Below, one piece after another: positions 4,384 to 21,294 of a DNA stretch of 54,512 bases. The stretch is from Candidatus Hodarchaeota archaeon (GTDB taxonomy: Archaea > Asgardarchaeota > Heimdallarchaeia > Hodarchaeales > Hodarchaeaceae). The notes below the pieces were generated by a model that was not told the origin of the DNA, ran no database searches, and saw only the letters and a list, made by a program, of their open reading frames with translations. The translations under genes were made by a program, and so were the position numbers. Where the stretch lies: positions 1 to 54,512 of the forward strand of contig JAEOTQ010000202.1 in the NCBI GenBank assembly GCA_016839785.1. Direction: 5' to 3'. Each line of letters opens with the position of its first letter. Position 1 is the stretch's first letter.

Positions 4384-5283
4384 TTAATTCTCTGATTTCA
4401 TCGTTCGCTCGAACTGGATGAGTAATTTTTCTAAAATGTCTAATGTAATTGTATCTTGATACGGAATTATTATGAAATTCTGTCCTACTCTATTAGCGAT
4501 TTCTGCACGAGCACCTGTGCGAGTATTGAGGTAGTCACGAATAGTTTTTAGAAATGATCTCAGTTTTGCTTCCTCTTGTTCTTGATGCAAAAATAGGCCA
4601 TAATTCCCTATTTCTGGATTATCCTTTAAATAAAATTTCGAGGTTCTTCTAATAAATGGAAAACTCTTGAGAGTAATGATTTTTGAAAAATCAAATGACT
4701 CTGTTACATTAGTTTTCATGATTTCACTTAAAGAACTTTTAGCAGCGCATATAGGACATTTTCCAGTAACTTTCAAGGATTCTGCAAAATGAGGAAGATG
4801 GAAAGGATTCTGACAGGTCGGACAATAAATCCGATCTTCATCCTCTTTAATTATATGTCTACAAACAGAACATGTTTCTTTAACACTTGAGAGAAGAATC
4901 AGTTCTGAATTCATTTGATTGAATTTTTCTGTGGGATGACCAACCCAGAAAACACGATTTCCCCATTGATCTCTTGCATAACTTCCTTCTTTTGGAATTA
5001 AAGGGCTTCTGATTAGAATTTTATCTCCCTTGCTAAGTTTACTCACTGAAGTAATATTTTTTTGATTCGTTGGATTTACCCAGATTAATAACATTCGAGT
5101 AGCAGAACTTTTTTTGTCTGTGACAGGTATCTGACGAAAAGGTGCCATACCATAAGTTATTTCTTTAGAAGAATGGTCTTTGGCATGACATTCAAATTCT
5201 ATGTCCATTATTGCTTCATCAGGGTATTCTTCGGAATCCAATCGTAATATTGCTTCACTAAAGCTAATTTTTTTGTTGGCCAT
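4384..5283 (-). CDS. OB-fold-like plus RING/PHD-like zinc-finger protein
   Basis: C138-x2-C-x12-C-x2-C-x4-H-x2-H-x10-C-x2-C179. N-terminal 'VTD...LLIW...LSKGDKILI' resembles an RPA-type OB fold. Confidence 0.65.
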   Translation of the reverse strand: MANKKISFSEAILRLDSEEYPDEAIMDIEFECHAKDHSSKEITYGMAPFRQIPVTDKKSSATRMLLIWVNPTNQKNITSVSKLSKGDKILIRSPLIPKEGSYARDQWGNRVFWVGHPTEKFNQMNSELILLSSVKETCSVCRHIIKEDEDRIYCPTCQNPFHLPHFAESLKVTGKCPICAAKSSLSEIMKTNVTESFDFSKIITLKSFPFIRRTSKFYLKDNPEIGNYGLFLHQEQEEAKLRSFLKTIRDYLNTRTGARAEIANRVGQNFIIIPYQDTITLDILEKLLIQFERTMKSEN

Positions 5284-5513
5284 TTTCCTCTCTTAACTCG
5301 CCTCTATCATTCTTTCCATTTTCTCTCATCATCTAATAATCTTACTTTTCACGGTAATGAATATTCTTTGTAGTCCGAATAGATTTCATTATCCTGAGAA
5401 AATGGGTCACCTTTGATCATGAGGAGTATGTATTTTAGCTCAATCTCCCAAAGATTTATACGAACCTTAACTCCATTATTCCAAAGATTCTCATATAAAT
5501 GGTGAATTAACGA

Positions 5514-6185
5514 ATGACTCCCACACCCGATTCAGAAGCTGCATTAGCAATTTTGCGCTTGTGGCCAGATGATTTCAAATGGTACCTCATACCTCTATTC
5601 GCGATAGTTGTTTATATGTATGCAGTAGAGATTGAGAAAAAAAATTGGAACAGAGTATTTGCAGGCCTCGCATTTTGGGGTATGGATTGGTTTAATGAAA
5701 TCTGGAATGCTCTAATCTTGTATTTCACTGATTATCAGGCATTCTGGACTTGCAGCGGTGAAACGGGATATCTTATTTTTGTAGGATTAAATATTGAGAT
5801 AAGCATGATGTTTGCAATGGCCGGTATTGCATTTACGAAAATGCTTCCTGAGGACAAGAACTATAAATTTGACCTCACTCCACTCAAGATTCCGCTTAAG
5901 ATTCCCAATCGATGGGCATTAGCAGTTGGAAACTCAATCTTCTGCGTATTTGTAGAAGTAATATTGAATGATGCAGGTGCTCTGCTTTGGGTTTATGATT
6001 TTTGGAAGGCTAGTCTTTTAGGAGTCATTCCTATCATTATATTTGGCTATCTTCATTTTATGGTCGTTTCTTTCTGGGTTTATGATATGAAAGAGCGAAA
6101 AAATCAAATCCTGACACTAGCGGTTATATATACTGTAGATATTATTGCTATTGTTCTTTTCGCTGGAATTCTAGACTGGATTTGA
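5514..6185 (+). CDS. Conserved-type integral membrane protein of unknown function
   Basis: About 6-7 TM segments with 'MDWFNEIWN' and 'GLNIEI' motifs. Confidence 0.75.
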   Translation: MTPTPDSEAALAILRLWPDDFKWYLIPLFAIVVYMYAVEIEKKNWNRVFAGLAFWGMDWFNEIWNALILYFTDYQAFWTCSGETGYLIFVGLNIEISMMFAMAGIAFTKMLPEDKNYKFDLTPLKIPLKIPNRWALAVGNSIFCVFVEVILNDAGALLWVYDFWKASLLGVIPIIIFGYLHFMVVSFWVYDMKERKNQILTLAVIYTVDIIAIVLFAGILDWI

Positions 6186-6196
6186 AATATATGGCA

Positions 6197-6230
6197 GAAG
6201 AGACCAGTCTCTTCAACCCCTCCTTTTTTT
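6197..6230 (+). terminator. Hairpin plus T-tract between convergent genes
   Basis: GAAGAGAC-CA-GTCTCTTC inverted repeat (6197-6214), followed 9 nt later by T7. Confidence 0.55.
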
Positions 6231-6270
6231 CTCATTCCCCCTTTTCAAGTAACTGGTAGAAGTTTACATT

Positions 6271-6477
6271 TTATCTCCTTAAACGAACTAGCAACCCCCC
6301 AACGATTCCCAATCCACCTAACACCATTAAAGCAAGATAAATAATAGGAAACTCTCCATCAGATGTCGGAGGAGGAGAAGGAGAGGTAGGTTCTAAGAAA
6401 AAGGCAATTATAGCTAGAATAAACGTTAAAAGTAGCAGAAAGCCAATGAACAGTTGAATATATATTTTCTGTGCCAA
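6271..6477 (-). CDS. Small 2-TM membrane protein with Pro-rich loop
   Basis: Two hydrophobic helices separated by PTSPSPPPTS, with a basic tail. Confidence 0.55.
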   Translation of the reverse strand: MAQKIYIQLFIGFLLLLTFILAIIAFFLEPTSPSPPPTSDGEFPIIYLALMVLGGLGIVGGLLVRLRR

Positions 6478-6603
6478 AAGGAGTCCACATTAGTATATCA
6501 TTTGTTTTGTAACATTGGTATTTCTCTTCTTAAATAAGCTTGAGATAGGGAGAATTGTTCCGTGATTTTCCGTGTAATTATGAAGAAACAACAATTTTGT
6601 CAC

Positions 6604-9600
6604 TTATAAACTTCGTTTCAATAATGGTAGGAATTTCTGGATTATGATTAAGAAAGAAGTTACTCCAACCAAACTAATAATTAGTAACACTAATGTAATC
6701 ATCATTGTACTATCTTGAGGATTACTTGTACCTTCCTCTGCATTTATCCAATCAATGATGTTACTAAAGAATATATTATTGTCCCCATGATGAAGAATTT
6801 CATTTGGATGGCATGCAAAAAGTAATATTTTTCCAATTCCCTCATACTTCGCAATTATTGAGTATTCACCTGAGGGATCGTAGACGATACTAGCTGATGG
6901 TACACTCACACCGAGATGAAGAATGGTTGTAGGAACCCAGAAATTGGTAACATTCTTGAATAACGGATATCTATGACTGTGATACGTAGTCAATCCACCT
7001 TCAATCTCGTCAGGTATTAAAGAAAGTCCGTAGTTTGCTAGAAAATTAACTATCCCCACAGGTAAACCCTGTGGAGTAAATATTAACACTGTGCCACCCT
7101 TATTAAGATAATCAGTAAGAGCGCTCAGCTCAGAAGGTTCCCACGTTTCACTTCCACCACAAATAATCACAATATCAGCAGTAGAAAGATGTGTTTCGTT
7201 TATGGGTTCGTAACGTATCACTTTTTGAATACTTAGATTCTGATATAATTCGGTGAGATATCCTGAATAATATTCATTGTGACTTCGGACATATAGGATT
7301 TCAGGAACTACGACATTTACGTTAATAATCGCGATATTGGTATTTCCAGCATTATCGAAAACTATTATACGTAATTTTAATGTCCCAGATGATTCGATAT
7401 GGTAAGAAAAGGTAGTTTCCAACGTCTGACTCACGAGGTTCCATTTCTGTTGTGCCTCATCCCAATCCTCAATCCGATGGGTGTTGATTCCTGACCCAAT
7501 GTCTGATGATACCCAAATAAGATCTAGATAAATCACATCTACGTCGCTACTATCTACCGGTGATAGAATATCAATTGCAGGATTAACAGTATCAACAATC
7601 ACCGTCTGTTCATATAGAATCTCTTCTAAATTGCTTAAAGATGCAATAATCTTTATGGTATGTTGGCCTTCTTCAAGATTGGTAAGAAGATACTGCGTAT
7701 CTGACGTAAAACCAACAGTAACTCCATCAAGTACTACAATATACTCAAGGACAGTAGTTTCATTTGGAGGATTCGCAAACCAGACCACGTCATAACTAGT
7801 GGCATTGATAAAAATTGTTGGCCCTCCTTTAACTCGAATGCCAGAGAATTCCCCATATGCTTCTAGCAGAATATTGTTAAAATACTGTTCATTATCTCCC
7901 TCAAACATATAATAAGTGATATCTCCTGAAAAAACCAGAAGTTTACCCATACTATCGTATGAAGCTCCAATAACATATCCAGCATATGATATCATTGAGG
8001 AAGCTGGAATAGATACAACGAGAGATTGCTCAACATCTCGGAAATAAAGGGTCTCAACATCATTCATCAATGAGTCTAATAAGTTTAAATCCGAAGTAAC
8101 AACATTTTCATTTGGACCTTCGTCTGATTTTCCTATTCCTTTGGTTACAAACCAATCATATAAATTAGAAGTATACGAATCGCGATTGACGAATAAAATC
8201 CAACCTCCTGCATCTAAGTAAGCATCTAAAGCATCAAATTCTAATGAAGTCCATGTGTTATCCCCACCATATCCTATAAAAACTATATCAAACTGCATTA
8301 GCCACGTATAGGTTACAGTGTCAGGGAAAAATAGATACTCATACTGAATATTCTGATAATTAAGATAATCTAGCAAGTTATATAAGCGATTTTCATTATG
8401 GTTTTCAACAAAACCTGCATTTAAAACATCTACATCTAACTCTAATTGTAATGTCCCTAGATTTCCAGCTCTATCCCAAACTAAAAAATTAAAGGAGTAT
8501 TCTCCTTCAATAGGGAAATAAAAATAAATAATAAAAGGATCATAATAATTCAGGCTAATTTCAGTCCAATTAGACTCATCTGAAATCTTCCAGAATACTT
8601 TAAGGATCGAAATACCTGATGAATCATCTGTAGCATTCCAAATAACAGTTTGATATAAATTCATTATTCGTGTGGACTCGGGAGAACTAATGTAAATCTC
8701 TGGAGCAATTAAATCAACAAGTATTATTCGAGAGTGATTGAAAACTTGAGAATTATTGTTATACATCTTGATTGTAAAATCGTAATAACCTTCTACCAAG
8801 TTATTCAATTGCCAATTTGAATTCGTTGTATTTCCTTGTAGGACACCATCTAAATAAATTTCGAATCTGTCTAAGGATGTATTTTCTAAGTACCAGTTCC
8901 ATTTGATAATAGGATCGGTCCGATTTATATACAAACTCGAATATTGAATTGATATTCCTTCTCGATGGCGAATAGATTCATCAAGGATATTTAATAAGAA
9001 TTGCTCATTATCGGAATAATACGTTCTATAGTTTATATCCCCTGATAAAGCAATTAATCCTCCTAAACCCTCCACAAATGCTCCAACAATATATGACCAA
9101 TCATTCGACCATATAATGGGCTGAGCATCTCCTGATAGAGTCCAGGATGCAAAGGTGTATCTTAGATATAGCTCATTGATTCCGTTAAATAATGGTAGTA
9201 CATTTTCAAAGGTTGATGTATAGATCGTTCCTGGACCATTATAAGTGAAAGTTATTCCTTTCGTACCCAGCCAGCTTTCTAAGGGAGTAGAATATGTATC
9301 ACGCCCCACATACACCACCCAACCCCCTGAGTCCAAATAATTCTCTAAAGCTGTCAATTCAGTACTAGTCCAGCTTCCTGATCCACTATAACCAATGAAA
9401 ACGACATCGAATCTAGTTAACCACGAGAAAGTAACACTTTCCCCTGAATTTAAATATTCCACCAGAAATCCTTGGTTGTTGTAGAAAGAGGAAATTCCTC
9501 CTAAATTATCTTCAAAATGAGACTGAATTATTCCTATGGTACGAATATCTACGAGAACTGGTAAAATTTCGTCATGCCTATTACCAGCATAATCCCAAAC

Positions 9601-12600
9601 TGATATCTTAAATTCATATTCTCCTGTTTCATAGAACGAAAGATAAGCATAAGAGGGATTCCATGGTTCTATATACAGTTCAGTCCATGAAGAATTCGAG
9701 GGGCGTTTAATGTATGCTTTTTCATCAGCAATGCCAGTAAGCGCATCACTGGCATTCCATGACAAATAAGAATAAGTCTGGTTGATAATACTTGTATACG
9801 GATGAACGACTTCAATTATAGGACTAGTAAGGTCAACAATTAGATTTCTTGAATCATAGAATACATTTGAATTGTTATCATACATATAAACAATAACATT
9901 ATGAACACCCTCTGTTAAATTGCTAAGCAACCAAGAATCGCTAGTAGTATTCCCTTGAACTAGTGAATCAAGTAATATTTCAAAATAGTCAAGGGAAGTG
10001 TTTTCAAGATACCAATTCCAGTTAACCATAGAAGAAGTTCCATTTGCCATCAAACTTGAGTAAGTAAAAGCTATTCCCTCATTAATCATATTAGCTTCCT
10101 TTAGAATATTGTCAAGAAATTTTTCATTATTCGCATAGTAGGTATAATAATCTATATCCCCTGACAAAGCAAGCAATCCTCCTAATCCTTCTACAAACGC
10201 CCCGACTATGTAGGTCCCATCTTCCGACCAGATAATTGGTTGAGCATTTCCTGAAAGGGTCCAAGTTCTGTAAGTATATCGAAAATAGAGTTGGGTGACA
10301 TCTTGAAAGAGAGGGTGGGAGGTATAGAAATTCGTAGTATAGAGCGAACCAGGACCATTTTGATTGAAGGATATCCCTTTAGTACCAAGCCAGCTTTCCA
10401 GAGGAGTTGCATATGTATCGCGGCCTACATACACCACCCAACCCCCTGAGTCCAAATAATCTTCTAATACTGACAATTCGGAACCAGTCCAGCTTCCTGA
10501 TCCTCCATATCCTATAAAAACGACTTCAAAACGTGTTAACCATGAAGTAGTCACCTCAATTTCATAGTTTAAATGGTCAACTATATATCCTTGACCCGAA
10601 TAGTAATTTGATATCCCACCCAAATTATCTTCAGAATGAGTCTGAATAATCCCAATTGCAGGAATATCAACTAGAATATTAATAATTTCATCCTTTCTAT
10701 TACCAGCATTGTCCCAAACTGATATTTTGAACTGATATTCTCCTACTTCATAGAACGAAAGATAAACATAAGAGGGATTCCAAGGTTCTATGTATAGTTC
10801 AGTCCACGAAGAATTTGAAGGGATTTTAATAAATGCTTTTTCATTAGCAACGCCAGTTAGCGCATCACTGGCATTCCATGACAAATGTGAATATGTTTGA
10901 TTGAACACACCAGATAATGGGTGGATTATCTCAATAATAGGCGTTGTTAAATCAACAATGAGATTTCTGGAGTCACTGAACGAATTTGAAGCATTATCAT
11001 ATAAATTGATAGTAATGTTAAAGACTCCTTCTGTTAATCCACTCAGAGGCCAATAATCGTTTGTTGTATTTCCCTGTAGCAAAGAGTCGAGATATATTTC
11101 AAAATAGTCAAGAGTAGTGTTTTCTAAATACCAATTCCAATCAATTGAAATCGTGGTTTCATTTGCCATCAAACTTGAGTATGTAAGAGCAATTCCCTCA
11201 TTTACCATTTCAGCTTCTTTCAGAATATTATCAAGAAAACCTTCATTATTCGCGTAATGAGTATAATAATCAATATCCCCAGATAAGGCAATTAATCCTC
11301 CTAAACCCTCCACAAACGCCCCGACTATGTAGGTCCCATCTTCCGACCAGATTATTGGTTGAGCAGATCCTGAAAGGGTCCAAGTTCTGTACGTATATCG
11401 AAAATAGAGCTGAGTGATATCTTGGAATAGAGGGTGGGAGGTATAGAAATTCGTAGTATAGAGAGAGCCAGGACCATTTTGATTGAAGGATATCCCTTTT
11501 GTGTTGAGCCAGCTTTCCAGGGGAGTTGCATATGTGTCACGGCCTACATACACCACCCATCCTCCTGAGTCCAAATAATCTTCTAATGCTGATAATTCGG
11601 AACCAATCCAGCTTCCTGATCCTCCATATCCAATAAACACAACGTCAAATCGGGAGAGCCATGAAAATGTAATAAAGCTGTCAGAATAAATATATTCATA
11701 GATATAACCCTTACTACTATAATAAGAAAGAATTCCCCCTAGATTATCCTCATAATGGTTTTGTACAAATCCCACGGAAGGTATATCTACAGTTATTAAG
11801 AAAATTTCATCTTTTCTATTACCTACTCTATCCCAGACTGATATTTTGAAGGAATATTGGCCAATTTGAGGGAAATATATTTGTGAATATGTCTGGTTGA
11901 ATAATGCTAATTCTGACCAAGAACTATTAGATGGAGATATCATGAATAATTTTGTCTGAATAATGAACGTAGTGGTATCTATGGAACTCCAATGAATATT
12001 CAAGTAATTTATTGTAACAATAGCTCCATCAGATGGACTTTCAAGAGTAATCACTGGTGCTGTTAAATCGATAAGAACATTTCTTGTAGTAACGTATTTT
12101 TTAGACTGATTATCACACAGAAGAACTGTGAGATTATGGGTTCCCTCTGTCAACCCAGAAAATGTCCAATTCTGACTTGTAGTATTCCCTTGTAGAATTT
12201 CATCGTAATATACTTCGAAATAGTCTAATGTAGTATTCGTTAATGTGTACCTCCAACCAATATTTGCTGTTGAAGTATTGATCAACAATTGTGTTTCGTA
12301 AAGGTATACACCCTCCTTTGAATCTTGATTCGATCCTGATATTATATTTTCTACTAGTTTTACATTATCTACATTATATAGAGAATAATCTAAGTCGCCT
12401 GCTGAGACAAAAATTGCCCCATTATATTCAAGGGCGCAAATTGTTTGATAAAATCCATCTTGGCTCCAAGCAATTGGTGAAAAGTCTCCTCCTAGGAAAT
12501 TCCAAGATCCAGAATACCTCAGATAGAATTGACTCACATTTTCAAATATGGGATGATTATGAAGGAACGTAGAACTATATGCACTTCCAGGACCTGAATC

Positions 12601-15348
12601 CTTCTGTTCTAGGCCTAATAAATTGAACCATTGCATCAATGGAACGGAATACCCTTGTCTCCCATTATAGAATATCCAACCACCACTTTCATAATACCGT
12701 GAAAGTGCTTGAATCTCCGACCTTTCCCAGAGATTTCCACCATATCCGATCCAGATAAGGTCAAACTGATTCAACCACTCGAGTGTTACCATCTGTCCTG
12801 AATATAGCGTTTCTACTCGTCCATTTAGTGTATAACAATAATTCTTTACATTACTAAGAGACCCCTCATAATGCGATTGTATAAAGCCGATAGAGAAGAA
12901 ATTAATTTCAATTTCAACCATAATTGTAGCAAGATTACCAGCCCAATCAGAAATTTCTAATTTAAGAATATGGACTCCTTCCTCTTGAAAAAATAGAGGT
13001 ACTCCATTACCAAAGGGATCGGGGAATTGTTTAGTTAAATTGGTGGTAGGAGATTTTAGCATCAGATTTTCTGTTATAACCCCTGTGTGATTATCCCAGC
13101 TGATCCAAGTCGAGTTACTGAATACTACCGTAATTTCAGTTCCATTCAGAGGCCTGAAAGAGGAAATACTTGGTGGTGTTTGATCAACTGATAGAACTTG
13201 ACTGTCTCGGAAGTGGTGAGTCTGATTATCGTGTATGATAATGGTTATGTTGTAATTTCCCTCATTTAATCCATGTAGAGTTACTGAATGGTTAGTTACA
13301 CTCCCAATAAATGATTCATTAACCCAAATATCAAGATGATCCATTTCTGCACCGCTAAGACTCCAATTCCATGATATTTCCTTCTGGGTGCTATTAGAAA
13401 GAAGTGATGCTGGATTAAAGAAGACCCCATCAGTAGTAGTATTGATTGCAGCATCTAATATATTCATAAGAAATTGACGATTATCCGCTTGATAAATCCC
13501 ATCATTAAAATTCCCTCCTATGGCTAAAAATGTTCCTAACTTAACAATTGCTCCAACAAATATTTTAGATCCGCCTTGATCCCAGATTACAGGATTAAAT
13601 GAATCACTAATTTGCCACTCACTAGCATCATCAAAATAAAGTGTATTAACATTCTCAAAGAGAGGAAAAGAAGTATTGAAATTGGAACTGTATGATGATC
13701 CAAGTGCATTTCCGAACTGTAAGCCAATTTTAGTTAACCATTTCGAATAAGATAGACTATTACTTGTCCCTCCTACCTGTAGAACCCACCCACCATTTGT
13801 AAACCACTCTTCAATATCTAATAATTCTTGGCGGGAATATGATTCAAAGCCTGAACCACCTATCAGTACTAGGTCTTTATTTTCAAACCATTCGGATGTC
13901 AATTCAGTAGATTCATTAAAAATATCAATATAGCATCCCTCATTCTGATAGTAATTTTGTATGTTCCACAGACCATCCTGAGCGTGATTTAAGGGAATAC
14001 CTATAACAATAATTTCTGCATTCACAATCAATTTGGTGATGTTTGTATTTCCCGCATTATCCATAATCCTGATTTCAAGAATATATGTCCCACTTTCATT
14101 AAAAGTTGTTTCTGCTGTACCACCATATATTGGATGGCTCCAAAAGGTAATATCTTGGTATATTGAGGAATTTTGAATATGTTGATAAACAAATTGTGTC
14201 TTTATCCCAGATAAATTATCGTTGACAGTCCAATTGAAGTCTAGGTACGCTTTTCGATGAAGCGTATTGTTTTCAAGTGAAATATATGTAATTTCTGGGA
14301 TAGTATAATCGAATGTCACTAATTGCCAAGCGTGATAGAAATTTGAAAAATCTGTCTCTACTGTAACAGAAATATTATAATCCCCTTCTAAAGGTGCAGT
14401 AACAATAAAAAAGGACTCTGAAGTACTCCCTTGAAAAATATCATCCAGAAAGATCTGTGTCACGACATTTGTTTCATTTTCTTTGAAATTGTACTTCCAT
14501 GAAAGGTTATAATCATTATTACTGTATTTAGAGGAGTAAATCTCGACTATTGGACTCCGTTCTCTCCAAGATATCATATTTCTAAAAAATTGGCTATTGT
14601 CATCATTATACAAGCTATAATAAAATTCCCCTGCTAAGATTAATAATTTTCCATCTCCAATATCAATGGATGTACCATAAACTCCTGTATTTGTCGAATC
14701 CCACAAAATTGACTTAGCTGGTTCTGCAACTATTAGTGAAGAAGAACCTGAGGGGATATAAAGTGAGCTGACATTCTCCATTAAGGGATGATTGGGATCA
14801 ATAATTGTTGTTGTCCCATGAACACCTTCACTAAACCCTGGTAACGATATTCCATACTTACGGGCGACTTCGATTGGTCCAGAATGTAAGTTCACATTTT
14901 CAATTGCGATGAAAATCCCTCCATTAGTAATATACTCTTCTAATGCTTCAATTTCCTCAGTGGACCAGAAATCTCCCTCTCCAGCGAACACGATCTCATA
15001 TGGAGATAAACTTTTTACAGAGATATTGGAATAGATAAGTTCCACAGAATATCCAGCTGATTCAAAAAATGATACAATGTGTTCACTCCCGAAGTTGTTA
15101 TGGACCATAAGGAAACCGATCTCAGAAATGTTATTTAATATCTTAGAATCATGTTTAGTATCCAATGGTAGAGAATTTACCAGATTATCAACAATAGAAG
15201 ATGTACTAGACTCTTCATCAAAGGGAGCAAGTCGGGAGATTTCTATTGAATTCAAGACATCAGAGGAATTAGAAATAATAAAATTAGAACCAAAAATTGG
15301 GCAAATAATAAGTAAAATTAAAAATATATTGAAAGATAACCCTCTCAT
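6604..15348 (-). CDS. Giant membrane-anchored surface glycoprotein: 8 GATase-fold (GIFT/DUF4350-like) domains alternating with 7 pairs of Ig-like domains
   Basis: Signal peptide, C-terminal TM and basic tail. Eight modules follow 'IG..xxHxE...W...EL..L..YL..GG...N..FL.NIL'. Seven Ig-like pairs carry 'D.T.P.I...W...D.AGN'. Many N-x-S/T sequons. Confidence 0.85.
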   Translation of the reverse strand: MRGLSFNIFLILLIICPIFGSNFIISNSSDVLNSIEISRLAPFDEESSTSSIVDNLVNSLPLDTKHDSKILNNISEIGFLMVHNNFGSEHIVSFFESAGYSVELIYSNISVKSLSPYEIVFAGEGDFWSTEEIEALEEYITNGGIFIAIENVNLHSGPIEVARKYGISLPGFSEGVHGTTTIIDPNHPLMENVSSLYIPSGSSSLIVAEPAKSILWDSTNTGVYGTSIDIGDGKLLILAGEFYYSLYNDDNSQFFRNMISWRERSPIVEIYSSKYSNNDYNLSWKYNFKENETNVVTQIFLDDIFQGSTSESFFIVTAPLEGDYNISVTVETDFSNFYHAWQLVTFDYTIPEITYISLENNTLHRKAYLDFNWTVNDNLSGIKTQFVYQHIQNSSIYQDITFWSHPIYGGTAETTFNESGTYILEIRIMDNAGNTNITKLIVNAEIIVIGIPLNHAQDGLWNIQNYYQNEGCYIDIFNESTELTSEWFENKDLVLIGGSGFESYSRQELLDIEEWFTNGGWVLQVGGTSNSLSYSKWLTKIGLQFGNALGSSYSSNFNTSFPLFENVNTLYFDDASEWQISDSFNPVIWDQGGSKIFVGAIVKLGTFLAIGGNFNDGIYQADNRQFLMNILDAAINTTTDGVFFNPASLLSNSTQKEISWNWSLSGAEMDHLDIWVNESFIGSVTNHSVTLHGLNEGNYNITIIIHDNQTHHFRDSQVLSVDQTPPSISSFRPLNGTEITVVFSNSTWISWDNHTGVITENLMLKSPTTNLTKQFPDPFGNGVPLFFQEEGVHILKLEISDWAGNLATIMVEIEINFFSIGFIQSHYEGSLSNVKNYCYTLNGRVETLYSGQMVTLEWLNQFDLIWIGYGGNLWERSEIQALSRYYESGGWIFYNGRQGYSVPLMQWFNLLGLEQKDSGPGSAYSSTFLHNHPIFENVSQFYLRYSGSWNFLGGDFSPIAWSQDGFYQTICALEYNGAIFVSAGDLDYSLYNVDNVKLVENIISGSNQDSKEGVYLYETQLLINTSTANIGWRYTLTNTTLDYFEVYYDEILQGNTTSQNWTFSGLTEGTHNLTVLLCDNQSKKYVTTRNVLIDLTAPVITLESPSDGAIVTINYLNIHWSSIDTTTFIIQTKLFMISPSNSSWSELALFNQTYSQIYFPQIGQYSFKISVWDRVGNRKDEIFLITVDIPSVGFVQNHYEDNLGGILSYYSSKGYIYEYIYSDSFITFSWLSRFDVVFIGYGGSGSWIGSELSALEDYLDSGGWVVYVGRDTYATPLESWLNTKGISFNQNGPGSLYTTNFYTSHPLFQDITQLYFRYTYRTWTLSGSAQPIIWSEDGTYIVGAFVEGLGGLIALSGDIDYYTHYANNEGFLDNILKEAEMVNEGIALTYSSLMANETTISIDWNWYLENTTLDYFEIYLDSLLQGNTTNDYWPLSGLTEGVFNITINLYDNASNSFSDSRNLIVDLTTPIIEIIHPLSGVFNQTYSHLSWNASDALTGVANEKAFIKIPSNSSWTELYIEPWNPSYVYLSFYEVGEYQFKISVWDNAGNRKDEIINILVDIPAIGIIQTHSEDNLGGISNYYSGQGYIVDHLNYEIEVTTSWLTRFEVVFIGYGGSGSWTGSELSVLEDYLDSGGWVVYVGRDTYATPLESWLGTKGISFNQNGPGSLYTTNFYTSHPLFQDVTQLYFRYTYRTWTLSGNAQPIIWSEDGTYIVGAFVEGLGGLLALSGDIDYYTYYANNEKFLDNILKEANMINEGIAFTYSSLMANGTSSMVNWNWYLENTSLDYFEILLDSLVQGNTTSDSWLLSNLTEGVHNVIVYMYDNNSNVFYDSRNLIVDLTSPIIEVVHPYTSIINQTYSYLSWNASDALTGIADEKAYIKRPSNSSWTELYIEPWNPSYAYLSFYETGEYEFKISVWDYAGNRHDEILPVLVDIRTIGIIQSHFEDNLGGISSFYNNQGFLVEYLNSGESVTFSWLTRFDVVFIGYSGSGSWTSTELTALENYLDSGGWVVYVGRDTYSTPLESWLGTKGITFTYNGPGTIYTSTFENVLPLFNGINELYLRYTFASWTLSGDAQPIIWSNDWSYIVGAFVEGLGGLIALSGDINYRTYYSDNEQFLLNILDESIRHREGISIQYSSLYINRTDPIIKWNWYLENTSLDRFEIYLDGVLQGNTTNSNWQLNNLVEGYYDFTIKMYNNNSQVFNHSRIILVDLIAPEIYISSPESTRIMNLYQTVIWNATDDSSGISILKVFWKISDESNWTEISLNYYDPFIIYFYFPIEGEYSFNFLVWDRAGNLGTLQLELDVDVLNAGFVENHNENRLYNLLDYLNYQNIQYEYLFFPDTVTYTWLMQFDIVFIGYGGDNTWTSLEFDALDAYLDAGGWILFVNRDSYTSNLYDWFVTKGIGKSDEGPNENVVTSDLNLLDSLMNDVETLYFRDVEQSLVVSIPASSMISYAGYVIGASYDSMGKLLVFSGDITYYMFEGDNEQYFNNILLEAYGEFSGIRVKGGPTIFINATSYDVVWFANPPNETTVLEYIVVLDGVTVGFTSDTQYLLTNLEEGQHTIKIIASLSNLEEILYEQTVIVDTVNPAIDILSPVDSSDVDVIYLDLIWVSSDIGSGINTHRIEDWDEAQQKWNLVSQTLETTFSYHIESSGTLKLRIIVFDNAGNTNIAIINVNVVVPEILYVRSHNEYYSGYLTELYQNLSIQKVIRYEPINETHLSTADIVIICGGSETWEPSELSALTDYLNKGGTVLIFTPQGLPVGIVNFLANYGLSLIPDEIEGGLTTYHSHRYPLFKNVTNFWVPTTILHLGVSVPSASIVYDPSGEYSIIAKYEGIGKILLFACHPNEILHHGDNNIFFSNIIDWINAEEGTSNPQDSTMMITLVLLIISLVGVTSFLIIIQKFLPLLKRSL
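8870..12230. repeat. Intragenic tandem repeat, period 1119 bp (373 aa), about 3 closely related copies
   Basis: TACACCACCC recurs at 9311, 10430 and 11549. CCCGACTATGTAGGTCCCATCTTCCGACCAGAT occurs at 10201 and 11320. Outer limits are approximate. Confidence 0.85.
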
Positions 15349-15613
15349 TTCATCTAACTTCCGAAAAATTTACTCAGGATCGCTGTGTGTAATTATAAGG
15401 AGCAATCATGTTTTGTTCTCGAGATGCCTAGGAAATTGTAACATAATAGGGCCCCTCTTAATTCTTCTTCAGATTCAGCACTAGAGATTATAAGTGTAAT
15501 TTCGAGATCCTTGTTTTATAAGGAGTATTTAAGTGTGGAAATCCTTTTGAACGTAATTAAGTTCAAATCGAAGAATGTCACCAATTTTTTGATTTCTTTT
15601 GAGAGTGAACGGT

Positions 15614-16021
15614 ATGACAACAGAATTGAAAGAAGAGTCGAGTATTAGAGTTATTATGTTAGGACTAGTAGCGATGTTAGTATTACTAGTATTAGCGGGA
15701 ATAACTAAAGCATTAATTGTTCCAACAGGTGTAGTGGTTGAAATAGATACTTTGTTCTATAGTATGTTTTTTGCGGCAAGTTTAGGTGTTTTTTCAATCG
15801 CTTTTATTAGCCAAGGGTTGTCTGAGGATAACAATCTTATAAGAATTATTTGTTTCACGTTTGGGTTCCTATGTGCAATTTCTACCTTATTTGGATTTGA
15901 TTTTGTCGTTGTAGGACTTCTCACAGGTGTTGGTGCAATATTAATCGCTGAATTATTCGTTTTTGCTGCATTAGGATTTGCAATAACTGCTACAGGCATT
16001 TATCTAATCAGGAGGGCTTAA
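15614..16021 (+). CDS. 4-TM membrane protein
   Basis: Four hydrophobic helices; first gene of a tightly packed operon; ATG 15614 chosen as start. Confidence 0.75.
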   Translation: MTTELKEESSIRVIMLGLVAMLVLLVLAGITKALIVPTGVVVEIDTLFYSMFFAASLGVFSIAFISQGLSEDNNLIRIICFTFGFLCAISTLFGFDFVVVGLLTGVGAILIAELFVFAALGFAITATGIYLIRRA

Positions 16022-16022
16022 A

Positions 16023-16391
16023 ATGTCTACACTAGAAGAATATTTGAAACCTTCAGTTATTGCAAAGCTATCATTTTGGTTAGGAGGCGTCCTAGCAGGA
16101 ATCTCGATGCTATTTTATGTTCTCCAAATTGCTAGGTTAAATGCAGAATTTTATGTCCTACAGGCCCCATTTGGGGTGCTATTCCTATTGTTGGTAGTTG
16201 TGATAATCGCAGTTGGAATTTTTGTACTTACAAACATTTACGATCTATTGAATCGACTTGAAGATGCTGGATATTTCTCGCCAGTTACAAAAACTCTACT
16301 ATTGACGATGATCTTCTTGATAATTACAAGTATTGAACTAGTAGGATTGATGGTCTATTATTTAATCCGAATACCATTTATTGGTACTTAG
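16023..16391 (+). CDS. 3-TM membrane protein
   Basis: Three hydrophobic helices; starts 1 nt after the upstream stop. Confidence 0.75.
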   Translation: MSTLEEYLKPSVIAKLSFWLGGVLAGISMLFYVLQIARLNAEFYVLQAPFGVLFLLLVVVIIAVGIFVLTNIYDLLNRLEDAGYFSPVTKTLLLTMIFLIITSIELVGLMVYYLIRIPFIGT

Positions 16392-16440
16392 GAATATAAT
16401 TCTAATCCATCTCCTTCTTTTTCCCAAGAAAGGTTCTTCT

Positions 16441-17262
16441 ATGAGGCCTCTTAAGCGTTTAATGGCAATAATTCTCGTAGTAATCCCCCTGATGACTTCT
16501 GTATTAGTAAATTCACGTTCCATTCTTGGGAGCCCAAATGATGGAATCTTCCCTCCTGAAGGTTCTTATTTAAATTATGGATTAGCTTATGAGAGAATTC
16601 TTCCAAATGGGAACTTTTTAGGCATCGTTGGGAATGCTGAAGTCAATTACTTCAATAGTGTGAATTCTACTCATATTCAGATGAGACTTGAAGCTGTAGT
16701 TGATCTATCTTGGATCCAAGACAAGCAGGATCTAAATATGACACAGCATATAATCACACGAAGTATCACGATCCAGAATCACCAAGGAAAAATTATAAAT
16801 GGGGTCCTCTTTCATTTTGGTAATGAAATCCAAATATATAATCCCATTTTTATACCTTTAGAAAATATCAGTAACAAGTCGGATGTCATTTTATGGTCAT
16901 ACAACGCATTTTATTCTCAAACACGTTCAGTTCAATGGAATTATAAAGAGATAGAAGTAGCAGAATATTTCTTCAAAGATGAAGCATATTCAAAACTCAG
17001 TGTCAACGCGAGTTTTCACCTTTCCACAGGAATCTTAATCCACGCACGATGTCACTTTCTGGAAAATGCTTTTGAGGGCAAAATTCAACATGTTCTTTAT
17101 GTAATTCTAGAAAATACTAATATTCCTATAATGGGAATCCCAGACATCTCATCTTTATTTTTATTTATCGGATTTGCCTCGATTTTTTCAATACTTCCGT
17201 TTTTCATTCTTATCATTCGGTTTTCTAAACGATCAAAGATTATTTTGGAAGGAGGCAAATAA
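16441..17262 (+). CDS. Secreted beta-rich protein with C-terminal TM anchor
   Basis: Signal peptide MRPLKRLMAIILVVIPL, a 'GSYLNY...FHLSTGILI' beta-rich domain and a C-terminal TM. Confidence 0.75.
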   Translation: MRPLKRLMAIILVVIPLMTSVLVNSRSILGSPNDGIFPPEGSYLNYGLAYERILPNGNFLGIVGNAEVNYFNSVNSTHIQMRLEAVVDLSWIQDKQDLNMTQHIITRSITIQNHQGKIINGVLFHFGNEIQIYNPIFIPLENISNKSDVILWSYNAFYSQTRSVQWNYKEIEVAEYFFKDEAYSKLSVNASFHLSTGILIHARCHFLENAFEGKIQHVLYVILENTNIPIMGIPDISSLFLFIGFASIFSILPFFILIIRFSKRSKIILEGGK

Positions 17263-17908
17263 AACGATTCTAAATGTTGATCAAATATCGAAAATTCATG
17301 GAAGCAGATTTTCACGAATCCGAATAAAAGCTTTGGACAGAGTATCACTCTCAATAGATCAAGGAGAGCTCGTGTGCATAAGTGGAGGCAATGGATCTGG
17401 AAAATCAACATTCCTGAGAATTATTGCTGGTTTAAGTTCTCCGACATCAGGAACAATTAAAATAAAATTGAATCAGGAAATCAGGAAGCCCTCACCTAGG
17501 ATTGGATTCTGTCCAGATAATCCAGAAATCTATCGTAACGTATCAGTTTCAGACTTTCTCAATTTTATTTCATGTATAATTCCATTAGAGATAAGAGAAT
17601 CGCAATTAATTGAATTTGTTAGAATATTTGACCTAATAAAATGGTTAAATGTACCAATTGGAACATTGTCGAAGGGAATGTTGCATAAAGTGGCCTTAAT
17701 TGCATCAATGATTGATAGCCCACAATTACTTATACTAGATGAGCCATTTTCTTCACTCGATGAGAAAAGTGCAGATGTATTGATAAAAAAACTAAGATCA
17801 CTAGCGTCTATGGGTTCTAGTATAATATTCGCAGATCCTAGTAGGGACCGATCCGAAAAAATGGCTGATAAAACATTTAATCTCGATAAGTCAAAGGTGA
17901 TGTCTTGA
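17174..17908 (+). CDS. ABC transporter ATP-binding protein (start uncertain; H-loop atypical)
   Basis: Walker A GGNGSGKST, signature LSKGM, Walker B/D-loop LLILDEPFSSLD. The H-loop region reads IIFADP. Confidence 0.88.
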   Translation: MPRFFQYFRFSFLSFGFLNDQRLFWKEANKTILNVDQISKIHGSRFSRIRIKALDRVSLSIDQGELVCISGGNGSGKSTFLRIIAGLSSPTSGTIKIKLNQEIRKPSPRIGFCPDNPEIYRNVSVSDFLNFISCIIPLEIRESQLIEFVRIFDLIKWLNVPIGTLSKGMLHKVALIASMIDSPQLLILDEPFSSLDEKSADVLIKKLRSLASMGSSIIFADPSRDRSEKMADKTFNLDKSKVMS

Positions 17909-18684
17909 GTATCAAAGAAATTATTAAATTTGATATCAAACGGTCATTCTCATCCTTATTAGTAATATCCATATTGCCTATCTCATTACTACTCATTCTA
18001 GTTCTATATTTCTATTTAATATTCTCAGGAGCGATTTTAACAACATCTAATCAAAAGGAAATCTTATATCTTGTAGCACGTATGTTTGCTTTTATCCTCC
18101 AATTCATATTAAGTATTTACTCCATCATCGTAGGCACTTACCTCCTTGATGACTCATCTATGTCATTCATTATAACCAGTCTAGGTAGTAGGCGAAAACC
18201 ATATTTGGCACGTATTGTGAGCACTAGCGTATTGTTAACGTTAGTAAACATAACATTTCTGACAATTTTTTACTGCTTTTCCTTTATATTCATAACCCCC
18301 CCAAGTTTGGGTTTAATTCTTGTATTTTTTAGTGTAGGGTCAATGGACATTCTTACATTCTCTTCAATAACGTTTTTAGGGTATATTCTTATTAAAATGG
18401 TCGGAATACGTCCAGTACTATCATCTCTTGTTCCACTATCCATTTTATTTGTTCTTCCACAGTTTTTGTACAATGGAATTTCTGTAGGTATATTACCAAC
18501 CATTTTTTACTCCCTCACACTGCAATTTCATCTGTCTACTATAGCGAATTATTTAATTCCCTCCCCATATATTATTCCAGTAGCCACGGACTTATTACTA
18601 GTTTCATTGATAACAATTTCAATTTGTGTTGTATCTACATATGTTTCTGGTTTAGTATTAGCAAAATTTCTGGAGTATCAATAA
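17905..18684 (+). CDS. ABC-2-type exporter permease
   Basis: Six TM segments and 'TSLGSRRKPYLAR' (like the P.SR..I...K motif); overlaps the ATPase stop by 4 nt. Confidence 0.75.
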   Translation: MSIKEIIKFDIKRSFSSLLVISILPISLLLILVLYFYLIFSGAILTTSNQKEILYLVARMFAFILQFILSIYSIIVGTYLLDDSSMSFIITSLGSRRKPYLARIVSTSVLLTLVNITFLTIFYCFSFIFITPPSLGLILVFFSVGSMDILTFSSITFLGYILIKMVGIRPVLSSLVPLSILFVLPQFLYNGISVGILPTIFYSLTLQFHLSTIANYLIPSPYIIPVATDLLLVSLITISICVVSTYVSGLVLAKFLEYQ

Positions 18685-19386
18685 ATGAACCATGTTCTAC
18701 ATTATAATCAAGTAAAGACTCAAATTTTAGCAAAGTCAGCTATATTGACACGCGAAACCGATAGCTTTCTGATTTTCTTCTTCATTTTCACTGTAGTCTT
18801 AATTACTATTTCATTTTTATCGATAAAAATTGTACCTTTAGTAAAATTCTTGCTAATTGGTGATATAAAAGAAGAAGAAAAGAATTTAATAATGAAAAGA
18901 GCTATTAAAGCCTTAACAGAGGGTAAAAATGTACGACTTGATCCAATATCAGAAAAACTAAAACTTACAGCAGTTAACACATTAAAACTTCTTAAACAGA
19001 ATATCCCTATGGAGATAAAGCAAGATAATCTTCTTGTTTCAACTTTCCCTTCATTTTCTTTACTGAAACTTCCAATTAAAAGCCAAGTTTGTGCTATTTG
19101 CTTAAATCCTATCCAAATTAATGTTTATCAACAGTGTATGACTTGTAATCGATTTTTTTGCTTGGATCATCATCACGAAACAATCGAGGCATCGAATCTA
19201 TGTCCCGACTGTTCTGGAAAGCTGGAATTTTTTCCTAAATGCTGTGATAACTGTGGATTGGAATTCGCTAACCTTTCACAACTACCTGATCTCCATAAGT
19301 GCCCATTCTGTAATTCAGAGGATATAATATCCCCATTTCAGGTCAAAGTTGAATTGAAACCAGATAGTTCATTAGAAGTTACTTAG
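18685..19386 (+). CDS. Membrane-anchored protein with RING-like finger and zinc ribbon
   Basis: TM, then a possible wHTH, then C-x2-C-x11-C-x2-C-x4-C-x2-H-x10-C-x2-C, then CDNC...CPFC. Abuts the permease stop. Confidence 0.7.
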   Translation: MNHVLHYNQVKTQILAKSAILTRETDSFLIFFFIFTVVLITISFLSIKIVPLVKFLLIGDIKEEEKNLIMKRAIKALTEGKNVRLDPISEKLKLTAVNTLKLLKQNIPMEIKQDNLLVSTFPSFSLLKLPIKSQVCAICLNPIQINVYQQCMTCNRFFCLDHHHETIEASNLCPDCSGKLEFFPKCCDNCGLEFANLSQLPDLHKCPFCNSEDIISPFQVKVELKPDSSLEVT

Positions 19387-19640
19387 AATATCTCATCTCA
19401 ATCAACATGATCATTTCAAAAGTCAAACTAAGATCGTTCAATGACTGTATGTATATTTCCTTAATTCAGCTATTTTCTTCGATTAGCTGTTTCGTAATAA
19501 ATTCGATTTTCTTGTCACATTGACTTAAGATTGTGGATAGACATTTCTAATCGTGAGTATAATCTGTGTTTTTTGTTTAACAATCGTTAAAAAAACTATC
19601 GTGAAGAACGTACATAGTCATTATTTAGAGGTTCATTTAC

Positions 19641-20888
19641 GTGAAAGTCTTTTTAGATAATAACGCGAGCACAAGAGTCGATGATGCCGTATTGGAAGCG
19701 ATGACACCATTTTTTACAGAGATAATAAGCCCCCCCAGCTCTGAATATGGAAATTCATTTGGAGTTGAAGCCCAAGAAGCCTTGAGTAATGCCAGAGAAA
19801 TCATTGCAAACAAACTAAACGTTGATACTTCGGAAATTATATTCACTTCAGGACAGGCCGAATCAAATAATACCGCTTTGAAAGGTTTTGCATTAGCAAA
19901 TGAGAAATCTGATTCTAAACTTATTTTAGCCTCAGCAGTATCACATTCTACTGTAATGGATCCTTTAAAATCTTTAGTTAAACATCATGGATTTGAATTA
20001 GAACTTATAGAAGTCAACAAAGAAGGGTTTATAAAACACGATCATTTACGTCAGTTGTTAAAGAAGAAACCCTTATTAGTTACCATACCACATGGGAATG
20101 TGGAAATTGGAACAATAGAGGATATTAATATCATAGCAAACATATGTCATGAAAACGATGTTAAATTGCATGTTGATATGACATATTCCTTCTGTAAAAT
20201 AGAAACAGATGCGTCTGTTGTTGATATGGCGACAATTGCCAGTCACCTTATTCATGGTCCAAAAGGTGTTGGTGCTCTTTATCTGAGAAAGAAACAGAGA
20301 CTACGTCCATTAATAGATGGTGGTTTTCAGGAAAACAGGAAACGAGCTGGTACCGAGAACATTCCTGGAATTGTTGGATTTGCTGAAGCGGTTAAACAGT
20401 TCACACCTGAAGTCATTTCTAAAATTACCGAGTTAAGGGATTATACACAGGAATTATTTAACAAAAACTTAACTGAATTTTCAATCACTGGGGCCAAGGA
20501 TAAGAATAAGCGTTTACCTGGGCATTTTTCTGCGGTTATTAGCTATGTTGAGGGTGAATCAATTTTATTGTACCTGGATATGTTAAATTTTATGGTAGCA
20601 ACTGGATCAGCATGCTCATCCAAACAACTCAAAGCAAGTCACGTCTTATCAGCTATTGGCCTTCCAACTGAAATTAGCCATGGCAGTATTCGCCTTGGTT
20701 TAAGTAAATATAATGAAAAGGAACAACTTGATGAATTTATTGTGCAACTAGGCCAGATCGTTGAGAGATTGCGAGCAATGAGTCCAGTAGATCAAGATTT
20801 TATGCGTGAGTGGAAAGAAATGAAAGAAAACGGCGAATATACTGAAGAAGACCATCACCATCACGATGATGACGAATCGGAGGAATAA
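19641..20888 (+). CDS. iscS: Cysteine desulfurase-like protein (IscS/NifS group I) lacking the PLP lysine
   Basis: FLDNNAST, IIFTSG.AESNN, RAGTEN, ATGSACSS and SHVLSAIG are present. The PLP motif reads SHLIHGPKG instead of HKxxGPKG. Confidence 0.92.
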   Translation: MKVFLDNNASTRVDDAVLEAMTPFFTEIISPPSSEYGNSFGVEAQEALSNAREIIANKLNVDTSEIIFTSGQAESNNTALKGFALANEKSDSKLILASAVSHSTVMDPLKSLVKHHGFELELIEVNKEGFIKHDHLRQLLKKKPLLVTIPHGNVEIGTIEDINIIANICHENDVKLHVDMTYSFCKIETDASVVDMATIASHLIHGPKGVGALYLRKKQRLRPLIDGGFQENRKRAGTENIPGIVGFAEAVKQFTPEVISKITELRDYTQELFNKNLTEFSITGAKDKNKRLPGHFSAVISYVEGESILLYLDMLNFMVATGSACSSKQLKASHVLSAIGLPTEISHGSIRLGLSKYNEKEQLDEFIVQLGQIVERLRAMSPVDQDFMREWKEMKENGEYTEEDHHHHDDDESEE

Positions 20889-20892
20889 ACAA

Positions 20893-21294
20893 ATGGGTAT
20901 GTATACAAAAGAAGTTATGGATTTATTCTTAAAACCAGAGAACATGGGCGAAATTGAAGATGCTAGTGCTATCGGAAAAGTCGGCAATCCCGTCTGTGGA
21001 GATATCATGTGGGTTTATCTCAAAATTGATGAACAAGACATTATTCAGGATGTGAAAGTGAAGACTTTTGGTTGCGTTGCAGCAATTGCTACAAGTTCTA
21101 AAACTACAATGATCATCAAAGGAATGACAATTAAAGACGCATATAAGGTTACAAAGAAGCAGGTTGCAGAGGAACTTGGTGGGTTACCAAAAACCAAGAT
21201 GCATTGTTCAAATTTAGCTGTCGATGCAGTTCAACGTGCCATTCAAGACTACCTCAAAAAAACTGGCAGATCTCTTGATGAATTGGAGAGCTAG
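20893..21294 (+). CDS. iscU: Fe-S cluster scaffold IscU/NifU-N
   Basis: GNPVCGD, FGCVAAIA and LP..KMHCS motifs. Confidence 0.95.
   Translation: MGMYTKEVMDLFLKPENMGEIEDASAIGKVGNPVCGDIMWVYLKIDEQDIIQDVKVKTFGCVAAIATSSKTTMIIKGMTIKDAYKVTKKQVAEELGGLPKTKMHCSNLAVDAVQRAIQDYLKKTGRSLDELES

Follow-up and report, generated by a model that had tools for sequence, protein, structure and literature searches.

The 54,512-nucleotide contig JAEOTQ010000202.1 of Candidatus Hodarchaeota archaeon (assembly GCA_016839785.1), which we call the window, carries a gene for a 2914-amino-acid (aa) protein built from repeated GIFT-like modules (6604-15348, minus strand) and, across a 250-bp divergent intergenic region (15349-15598, from the coordinates of the open reading frames, ORFs), six packed plus-strand ORFs that run from 15599 to 19386. 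Comparison with related genomes suggests that this interval does not encode a single apparatus. We consider it likely that three unrelated units have been brought side by side by a lineage-specific rearrangement in a variable slot between the gene for a 223-aa membrane protein and nifS, namely the giant, which would be a binding or scaffold rod, a separate exporter operon and a truncated paralogue. A first-pass annotation had placed all seven ORFs where we find them, with a gap of about 265 bp that proves to be 250 bp, and had read them together as a GldAFG-like ATP-binding cassette (ABC) apparatus. It had also proposed synteny across Asgard genomes as one check on that reading, and this check goes against it: the linkage of giant and operon fails in all 12 giant loci searched in ten relatives, and the operon neighbourhood is found elsewhere in collinear form without the giant.

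To describe this distribution, a profile of the giant's modules was run against the source genome (G000; 4.04 Mb in 248 contigs, 84.5% complete) and 40 relatives. Matches at E ≤ 1e-3 occur in 25 of these 41 genomes, and ten relatives have strong multi-module giants (E 2e-32 to 8e-72). The 12 giant loci of these ten relatives were searched with 11 window proteins. None of the 12 contains the genes for the protein with four transmembrane segments (4TM), the 3TM protein, the 293-aa protein, the permease or the 233-aa protein, and four contain some ABC ATPase at 27-31% identity; of these ATPases, two belong to one ECF-like cluster shared by G004 and G019, and a third is a fused exporter at a distance of 7 kb. 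The operon itself is rare. The 293-aa protein is present in five of the 41 genomes (G000, G004, G019, G021 and, weakly, G035) and the permease in four, and a profile of the 273-aa form of the former matches 8 of 83 genomes of the class, four of them close and from this genus, four distant and from another family. In only one of the four operon-bearing genomes does a giant adjoin the operon.

The most informative relatives are G004 and G019, in which the operon neighbourhood is collinear with the window at 50-94% identity. The gene order there is 171-aa, 417-aa, 299-aa RING-like and 223-aa proteins, then 4TM-3TM-bitopic-ATPase-permease, nifS, nifU, a histidine-kinase-like protein, a response regulator and a 271-aa protein. 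The giant is absent from this place, the 223-aa and 4TM genes being separated by 217-219 bp, and 452 bp lie between the permease gene and nifS, with no 233-aa gene between them. In these two genomes the giants are located on different contigs from the operon, where their neighbours are a class-II aldolase, a histidine phosphatase and the ECF-like cluster; the giants are only 26-31% identical to the window giant. G000 retains this aldolase/ECF block, with matches to 11 of its 13 proteins (68-93%), and has other genes in the giant's place. A link between giants and the ECF-like cluster, which lies about 1.5 kb from the giants of G004 and G019, was considered and dropped, as G000 has the cluster without a giant. 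Among the other relatives, two have a giant and no operon match, G012 (96% complete) with a giant of 2320 aa and the one-contig genome G010 with one of 1104 aa, and the five operon genes occur in the same order, but in another context, in G021 (88% complete), which has no module match. In G035 the distant homologue of the bitopic protein adjoins another ABC ATPase and a 231-aa protein without a family match.

Both edges of the slot are conserved. On the left is the gene for the 223-aa membrane protein (5514-6185, plus strand), found in 13 of 22 genomes of the genus at E ≤ 1e-20 and 89-92% identical in G004 and G019. On the right are the NifS-like and NifU-like genes (19641-21294, plus strand; Pfam Aminotran_5 and NifU_N), an edge that is collinear in G004, G019, G012, G010, G015 and G013. 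The contents vary: in G012, G010, G015 and G013 the distance from the 223-aa gene to nifS is 2.9-3.1 kb, occupied in G010 by class-II aminoacyl-tRNA-synthetase-like and arginase-family genes and in G012 by ORFs of like size. Downstream of the giant, a 68-aa ORF with two TM segments (6271-6477, minus strand) has tblastn homologues at 69-75% identity (L025:12003-12206 and L026:9551-9727); in G004 and G019 these are found beyond the opposite end of the operon, with the permease gene on one side and nifS on the other; therefore more than one rearrangement separates the two arrangements. The giant lacks flanking direct repeats (the longest word common to 6101-6700 and 15301-15650 is 10 nt), there is no step at the giant in the GC content, which is 35% over the window, and the window has no tRNA genes.

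The alternative that survives best is a recent functional capture, in which, in this lineage only, giant and operon would be co-regulated from the 250-bp region without any ancestral complex; the exporter might then, for example, serve envelope remodelling when the giant is made. We think this unlikely. The divergent arrangement and the short shared region are what it would lead one to expect. Upstream of the 4TM gene there is also a promoter-like element (15516-15551) that is kept in G004 and G019 (by blastn, 80.6% identity over 36 nt to L025, with L025 and L026 88.9% identical over 27 nt). As the element is kept in all three genomes, the operon has its own promoter, and two promoters would thus stand back to back in the window. 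However, the arrangement is known from one genome, and because ABC ATPase domains are common in G000 (85 ABC_tran matches at E ≤ 1e-10 in 4.04 Mb), a giant landing beside one is unremarkable. The public runs that contain the stretch are marine or sediment metagenomes, all DNA, and no RNA run is among those containing 12000-19500.

Still less probable, and in our judgement very unlikely, is the model of the first-pass annotation, in which the giant would be an amplified GldG-like auxiliary of a GldAFG-like ABC machine that would also comprise the divergent operon and, in the cytoplasm, a RING subunit. Bacteroidota encode GldG together with GldA and GldF. The window offers GIFT-like modules and divergent genes only 250 bp apart, and G000, G004 and G019 each have an operon and a giant somewhere in the genome. 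Against the model, adjacency is confined to one of four operon-bearing genomes and was seen in none of the 12 giant loci of relatives, and G012 and the one-contig G010 have giants and no operon match. The family models point the same way: the ATPase scores 93.2 bits against the GldA equivalog TIGR03522, for which the cut-off is 402.6, and the whole giant scores 29.6 bits against ABC_transp_aux (PF09822; cut-off 34.7), with E 3.2e-4 and 20.5 bits for the best single module. The gene for the supposed RING subunit has no counterpart at the syntenic loci and belongs, as described below, to a larger family as a truncated paralogue. The tempting GldAFG-like "system" is removed by the finding that the giant neighbours an ABC transporter in one genome only.

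Architecture and predicted fold of the giant

As defined by its ORF and translation, dissection of its repeats, Pfam and a hydrophobicity scan, the giant consists of a signal peptide, eight GIFT-like modules, 14 immunoglobulin (Ig)-like domains, a C-terminal TM anchor and a short tail. Segment-wise BLASTP, a six-frame search and MAFFT place the module starts near aa 74, 449, 816, 1188, 1558, 1931, 2305 and 2681, a period of about 372 aa (a repeat of about 1119 nt) of which each module takes about 195 aa. Seven of the eight modules are followed by about 180 aa that form two Ig-like beta-sandwiches in the model of unit 4. On the Kyte-Doolittle scale the protein is hydrophobic at its N-terminus (aa 1-19) and C-terminus (aa 2878-2896); the latter segment is the TM anchor (about nt 6649-6717, minus strand), beyond which there are about ten residues, a partly basic tail. 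The protein has only 7 cysteines in 2914 aa, none of them invariant in the modules, and 63 N-x-S/T sequons compared with 39.0 ± 5.6 in 500 shuffles. These features suggest a type-I anchored rod with 22 extracellular domains, probably heavily N-glycosylated. From this architecture and a published proposal of sugar binding, we predict that the giant acts in binding or as a scaffold at the surface of Asgard cells, and that its GIFT modules may provide carbohydrate- or protein-binding sites spaced about 10 nm apart. With 22 domains, the rod would by a rough estimate be some 80-90 nm long.

The units differ in age. Units 4, 5 and 6 (8431-11787, minus strand; unit-wise blastn and module tree) are recent internal tandem duplicates: the DNA of unit 4 is 82% identical to that of unit 5, either is 70% identical to unit 6, and the remaining unit pairs of the giant share 22-42% protein identity. 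In the module tree these three form one clade (support 99/95). Unit 1 (GIFT plus two Ig; 14023-15138, minus strand; alignment and module tree) stands apart from units 2-7, with the modules of other families, and is, judged by this placement, an old module type. Unit 8 (6730-7311, minus strand; Pfam and module tree), the last GIFT module, lacks the Ig pair and adjoins the membrane anchor; it is paired in the tree with the final module of the giant of G012 (support 99/97), and the modules of the G004 and G019 giants pair by position. From this pattern it follows that the gene lineage predates the juxtaposition and that arrays expand independently, and the giant would grow and shrink through internal tandem duplication. 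A six-frame search of the whole G000 genome with unit 4 matched the eight modules of the giant and no other place. Tandem Repeats Finder found no repeat in the giant, its longest period of 500 nt being below the repeat of about 1119 nt. A pattern search of genome contigs with unit 4 alone or the permease alone gave no relative confirmed by tblastn, and the eight-module alignment lacked a conserved stretch for such a search.

The GIFT-like nature of the modules, proposed by the first-pass annotation, is borne out both by sequence and by predicted fold. The whole giant matches the Pfam family IFT52_GIFT (PF23355) at 5.7e-18 and 65.3 bits, well over the cut-off of 27.2 bits. Among single modules only unit 8 passes this cut-off (27.4 bits); one more matches below it, and six of the eight have no match at E ≤ 0.01. 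After IFT52_GIFT come weaker matches to DUF4159, ThuA, DUF4350 and ABC_transp_aux, and Ig-type families over the spacers. When the profile of all eight modules was compared with solved chains, the top three were mouse IFT52 5fms_A (E 1.4e-5), Chlamydomonas IFT52 5fmr_A and 8bd7_B. Hence, of the three families suggested for comparison in the first-pass annotation, IFT52 was matched by profile and by Foldseek, while ABC_transp_aux and DUF4350 (PF14258; 30.3 bits for the whole giant, just below the cut-off of 30.4) stay under their cut-offs.

An AlphaFold2 model of unit 4 (373 aa) was made from 37 aligned rows, comprising the 8 window units, 24 modules from relatives' giants and 5 short library proteins, and reached a predicted local distance difference test (pLDDT) of 93.4 and a predicted template modelling score of 0.84. 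It contains an alpha/beta domain at residues 1-195 and then two beta-sandwiches. With residues 1-200 Foldseek returns IFT52-N, OST48/Wbp1, ThuA-like and GH42 middle domains, and with the rest of the model SiiE and Fn3 pairs. The predicted module fold, of the flavodoxin-like/GATase1-like alpha-beta kind, superposes on a solved GIFT domain, and we take the modules to be GIFT domains. The GIFT-plus-Ig unit, which by this model folds well, would be a suitable construct for asking what the GIFT domain binds.

Could the modules instead be active class-I glutamine-amidotransferase/ThuA-like enzymes, and the giant a multi-headed surface hydrolase? We regard this as highly improbable. The residues invariant in the eight modules are H11, E64, G75, G76, G98, G163, N181 and N187, of which only G75, G76 and G163 are invariant across the 37 aligned rows; because no module cysteine is conserved, the amidotransferase triad is absent. 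The best structural matches, moreover, are the non-catalytic IFT52 domains.

The window giant has many relations. A search of 1.84 billion library representatives with the module profile gave 888 matches at E ≤ 1e-3, of which 177 reach 1e-10 and 38 reach 1e-30. Among the best 150, there are 147 with at least one near-full module, 85 with at least two, 11 with at least five and four with eight, the window giant included; tandem GIFT giants therefore recur, and an amplified GIFT array is not peculiar to the window. A hydrophobic segment ends 34 of the 147 module-bearing proteins. Pfam was run on 19 of the best library matches: seven are proteins of 2600-4100 aa in which 5-8 DUF4350/GIFT modules lie between HYDIN/ASH-type Ig domains and which end in FlgD_ig or Por_Secre_tail, eight combine subtilase, CARDB and GIFT, and four are other mosaics, the G012 giant included. 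Ends of the FlgD_ig or Por_Secre_tail type are characteristic of bacterial proteins exported by type-9 secretion. The window giant adds a new member to a recognisable, though uncharacterised, class of surface proteins with tandem GIFT and Ig domains. It indicates that Asgard archaea have fast-evolving, repeat-expanding surface giants made from a domain, GIFT, that is also present in the eukaryotic proteins IFT52 and OST48.

In another family of the class, a further large anchored protein comes after the giant (L018:12272-15178 in G037 and L019:3211-5865 in G031). In G037 this second protein is a subtilase with CARDB, of 968 aa, which recalls the subtilase-GIFT fusions among the library matches.

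The junctions and the weight of the juxtaposition

The evidence on the junctions consists of one assembly and short supporting contigs. The public contigs over 4500-20500 are short, and most junctions are neither bridged nor contradicted by them; a contig of run X2 covers 14990-15402 without difference, across the giant's start codon.

Several points weigh against our reading of three unrelated, juxtaposed units. One contig of public run X1 agrees with the window as far as 15328, just within the 5′ end of the giant gene, and then continues with 255 nt of unlike sequence (strain variation, a paralogue or an artefact of the contig might explain this), and among the public contigs displayed none bridges 15402-15599. 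The rearrangement itself could be an insertion in the line of G000 or a loss in that of G004 and G019. G000, G004 and G019, which share the closest form of the operon, all carry multi-module giants somewhere, and a partnership of giant and operon in trans is conceivable, although their relatedness is by itself enough to account for this. That no module match was obtained in G021 and no operon match in G012 depends on the particular queries and on assemblies that are 88% and 96% complete, respectively. We know of no established biochemical activity of the GIFT domain in any protein, and the giant's binding, glycosylation and localisation are predictions from its sequence. In the operon, the permease could be assigned to no family, and a structure model of the bitopic protein, made from five sequences, reached a pLDDT of only 43 and was discarded.

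The least probable reading of all is an artefact of the metagenome assembly in which the repeat-rich giant was wrongly joined to the operon's contig: its internal DNA repeats are 70-82% identical, the giants of G004 and G019 stop at contig ends, and the X1 departure and the unbridged 15402-15599 would suit a false join, but the X2 contig runs on unchanged through 14990-15402, the 68-aa ORF has also switched sides, so that a single false join is insufficient, GC is even across the junctions and both junction bins have depth in two runs.

The probable exporter operon and the truncated paralogue

On the reading that we prefer, of three juxtaposed units, the first five plus-strand genes would be a self-contained ABC-2-type exporter operon that moves as a block, export being the presumed direction. 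The operon begins with genes for two small membrane proteins, a 4TM protein of 140 aa (15599-16021, plus strand; four hydrophobic segments) and a 3TM protein of 122 aa (16023-16391, plus strand; three hydrophobic segments). Orthologues of the first are 71-72% identical in G004 and G019 and 48% in G021, with the same gene order, and those of the second 71-73% and 44%, respectively. The third gene encodes the bitopic ectodomain protein, a 293-aa ORF (16381-17262, plus strand) with a hydrophobic segment at each end; in database entries it starts at 16441 and has 273 aa (16441-17262, plus strand). Its N- and C-terminal TM segments enclose a beta-rich ectodomain of roughly 205 aa with 5 sequons. 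This two-anchor topology is as for an auxiliary ectodomain subunit, a role that the bitopic protein may fill and the giant would not. Its family is tiny, with 4 proteins among 5.8 billion clusters, and the language-model neighbours of the 273-aa form are Asgard clusters.

The ABC ATPase follows (17174-17908, plus strand; ABC_tran E 2.5e-26, 93.3 bits). Its true start is probably near 17270, because the G021 orthologue begins just past the preceding stop codon. The best NCBIfam models (DrrA, CcmA, lantibiotic protection and GldA) give it 93-100 bits, all far below their cut-offs, as with DrrA (99.9 against 312), and by these matches the ATPase is of a DrrA/CcmA-like kind. The polytopic permease (259 aa; 17905-18684, plus strand) overlaps the ATPase stop by 4 nt, and its orthologues are 55-59% identical in G004 and G019 and 39% in G021. 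Its language-model look-alikes score 0.95-0.96, and in two clusters ABC2_membrane families are found on 14-49% of members. Judged solely by gene order, topology and these look-alikes, the permease is probably of the ABC-2 type. The 4TM, 3TM, bitopic and permease proteins have no Pfam or NCBIfam match, in the case of the permease none at E ≤ 1. ATPase and permease are kept as a pair in G004, G019 and G021, the ABC_tran-then-permease arrangement by which an exporter is recognised. In G021 (L027:4076-7749) the operon comes immediately after a second ABC-2 transporter, made up of a DrrA-like ATPase and two ABC2_membrane_3 permeases.

The sixth gene (18685-19386, plus strand; ORF, BLASTP and an alignment of five sequences) encodes a 233-aa protein with one TM segment and cysteine clusters. 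Seven cysteines are invariant in the five aligned sequences (C136, C139, C151, C154, C159, C173 and C176) and are followed by a C-x2-C...C-x2-C zinc ribbon; there is no eighth zinc ligand conserved across the five. No RING model matches the protein, for which the best Pfam result is E 0.084 (DZR_2), so that the RING assignment of the first-pass annotation is confirmed by no family model. The gene is absent at the syntenic position in G004 and G019. The protein aligns at 25-30% identity with the C-terminal third of WD40 proteins of 705-779 aa. These full-length relatives share its cysteine pattern and carry, in addition to a TM segment, a signal peptide, DxDxDG repeats and a WD40 propeller (PF00400, 214 bits). 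Matches to the 233-aa protein occur in 19 of 21 other genomes of the genus, never adjoining a giant. By its alignments the gene is a truncated, diverged paralogue of this 705-790-aa WD40 receptor-like family, the full form of which would join the WD40 and DxDxDG ectodomain through a TM segment to a cytoplasmic zinc module.

Full-length members of the WD40 family are found at L036:960-3299, L035:986-3322, L037:2857-5193, L034:1078-3195 and L038:2780-5107. The propeller is predicted to be extracellular, the DxDxDG repeats are thrombospondin-like and the cysteine-rich zinc module is predicted to be cytoplasmic, a combination that looks unusual. This family and the five-gene ABC operon are separate leads.

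A neighbouring gene encodes a soluble 299-aa protein (4384-5283, minus strand) with a C-x2-C...C-x2-C-x4-H-x2-H...C-x2-C motif, which BLASTP aligns with the 233-aa protein over 49 aa (E 5e-5). It matches Prok-RING_1 at E 8.9e-5 and 22.8 bits, below the cut-off of 29.1, and is kept at 70% in G004 and G019, adjoining the 223-aa and 417-aa membrane proteins. The cysteine-bearing part of this protein is matched as well by double-zinc-ribbon proteins of 164 aa that are encoded beside giants in G037 and G027. A link between RING-like proteins and giants by way of this 164-aa protein was rejected, as it is near giants in only these 2 of the 12 loci.

The window also encodes cytochrome bd oxidase subunits I and II (30904-33311, plus strand; Pfam E 4e-142 and 3e-89), here in an Asgard genome, as well as an Eco57I/MmeI-type methylase-like protein of 686 aa (24109-26169, minus strand) and an N6_N4 DNA methylase (33317-34429, plus strand), both of which are possibly parts of restriction-modification systems. 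A BtrH_N plus DUF4872 protein (28537-29619, minus strand) adjoins PadR-like and GyrI-like genes. Actin is encoded in the G000 genome at full length (positions 5-407 of 410; PF00022, 440 bits).

Comparison with known systems

The N-terminal GIFT domain of IFT52 (5fmr, 5fms and 8bd7_B) is cytoplasmic, eukaryotic and present as a single copy in a subunit of the IFT-B complex, whereas the giant has eight extracellular copies that alternate with Ig pairs on a membrane anchor, at an identity of about 15%. OST48/Wbp1 (7oci_G, 6ezn_G, 6s7o_G and 8b6l_N) scores below IFT52 and is a single-copy subunit of oligosaccharyltransferase; the scan of window proteins turned up no STT3/AglB gene. In passages of PMC7226087 the GIFT domain is defined from GldG, IFT52 and Wbp1, the link between GldG and GIFT is cited, and the proposal that GIFT binds sugar is attributed to Beatson and Ponting 2004. 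Passages of bioRxiv 10.64898/2026.10.28.762692 place OST48/WBP1 among the Asgard-eukaryote homologues, with no mention there of IFT52, GIFT or GldG.

In its topology the giant, and likewise its last module taken with the anchor, is like the arCOG01314/DUF4350 proteins, which have a signal peptide, an extracellular flavodoxin-like, GldG-like domain and a single C-terminal TM segment; these are described with one such region and with linked genes for a MoxR ATPase and vWA proteins (passages of Makarova et al. 2015, PMC5898192, where GldG is given as an auxiliary subunit of the transporter). Among the 21 other window proteins scanned, no Pfam match to MoxR or vWA was found. As in GldA-GldF-GldG of Flavobacterium, an ABC ATPase, a polytopic permease and a GIFT protein stand in one neighbourhood, but unlike that system the curated cut-offs (TIGR03522, PF09822) are missed and the linkage is not conserved. 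GldG has a single GIFT region flanked by two TM segments, and this two-anchor topology is matched here by the operon's own 273-aa protein.

In the full-text literature searched, no listed article deals with tandem arrays of GIFT domains in surface proteins of archaea. The same design as that of the giant is found in the library giants (P0004, P0005, P0006, P0010, P0012 and others), which have 3000-4000 aa and 5-8 GIFT-type modules with interleaved Ig domains. These proteins have Ig domains of the HYDIN/ASH type and FlgD_ig or Por_Secre_tail ends, whereas the window giant alternates its GIFT modules with Big_13/PKD-like Ig pairs and ends in a TM anchor.

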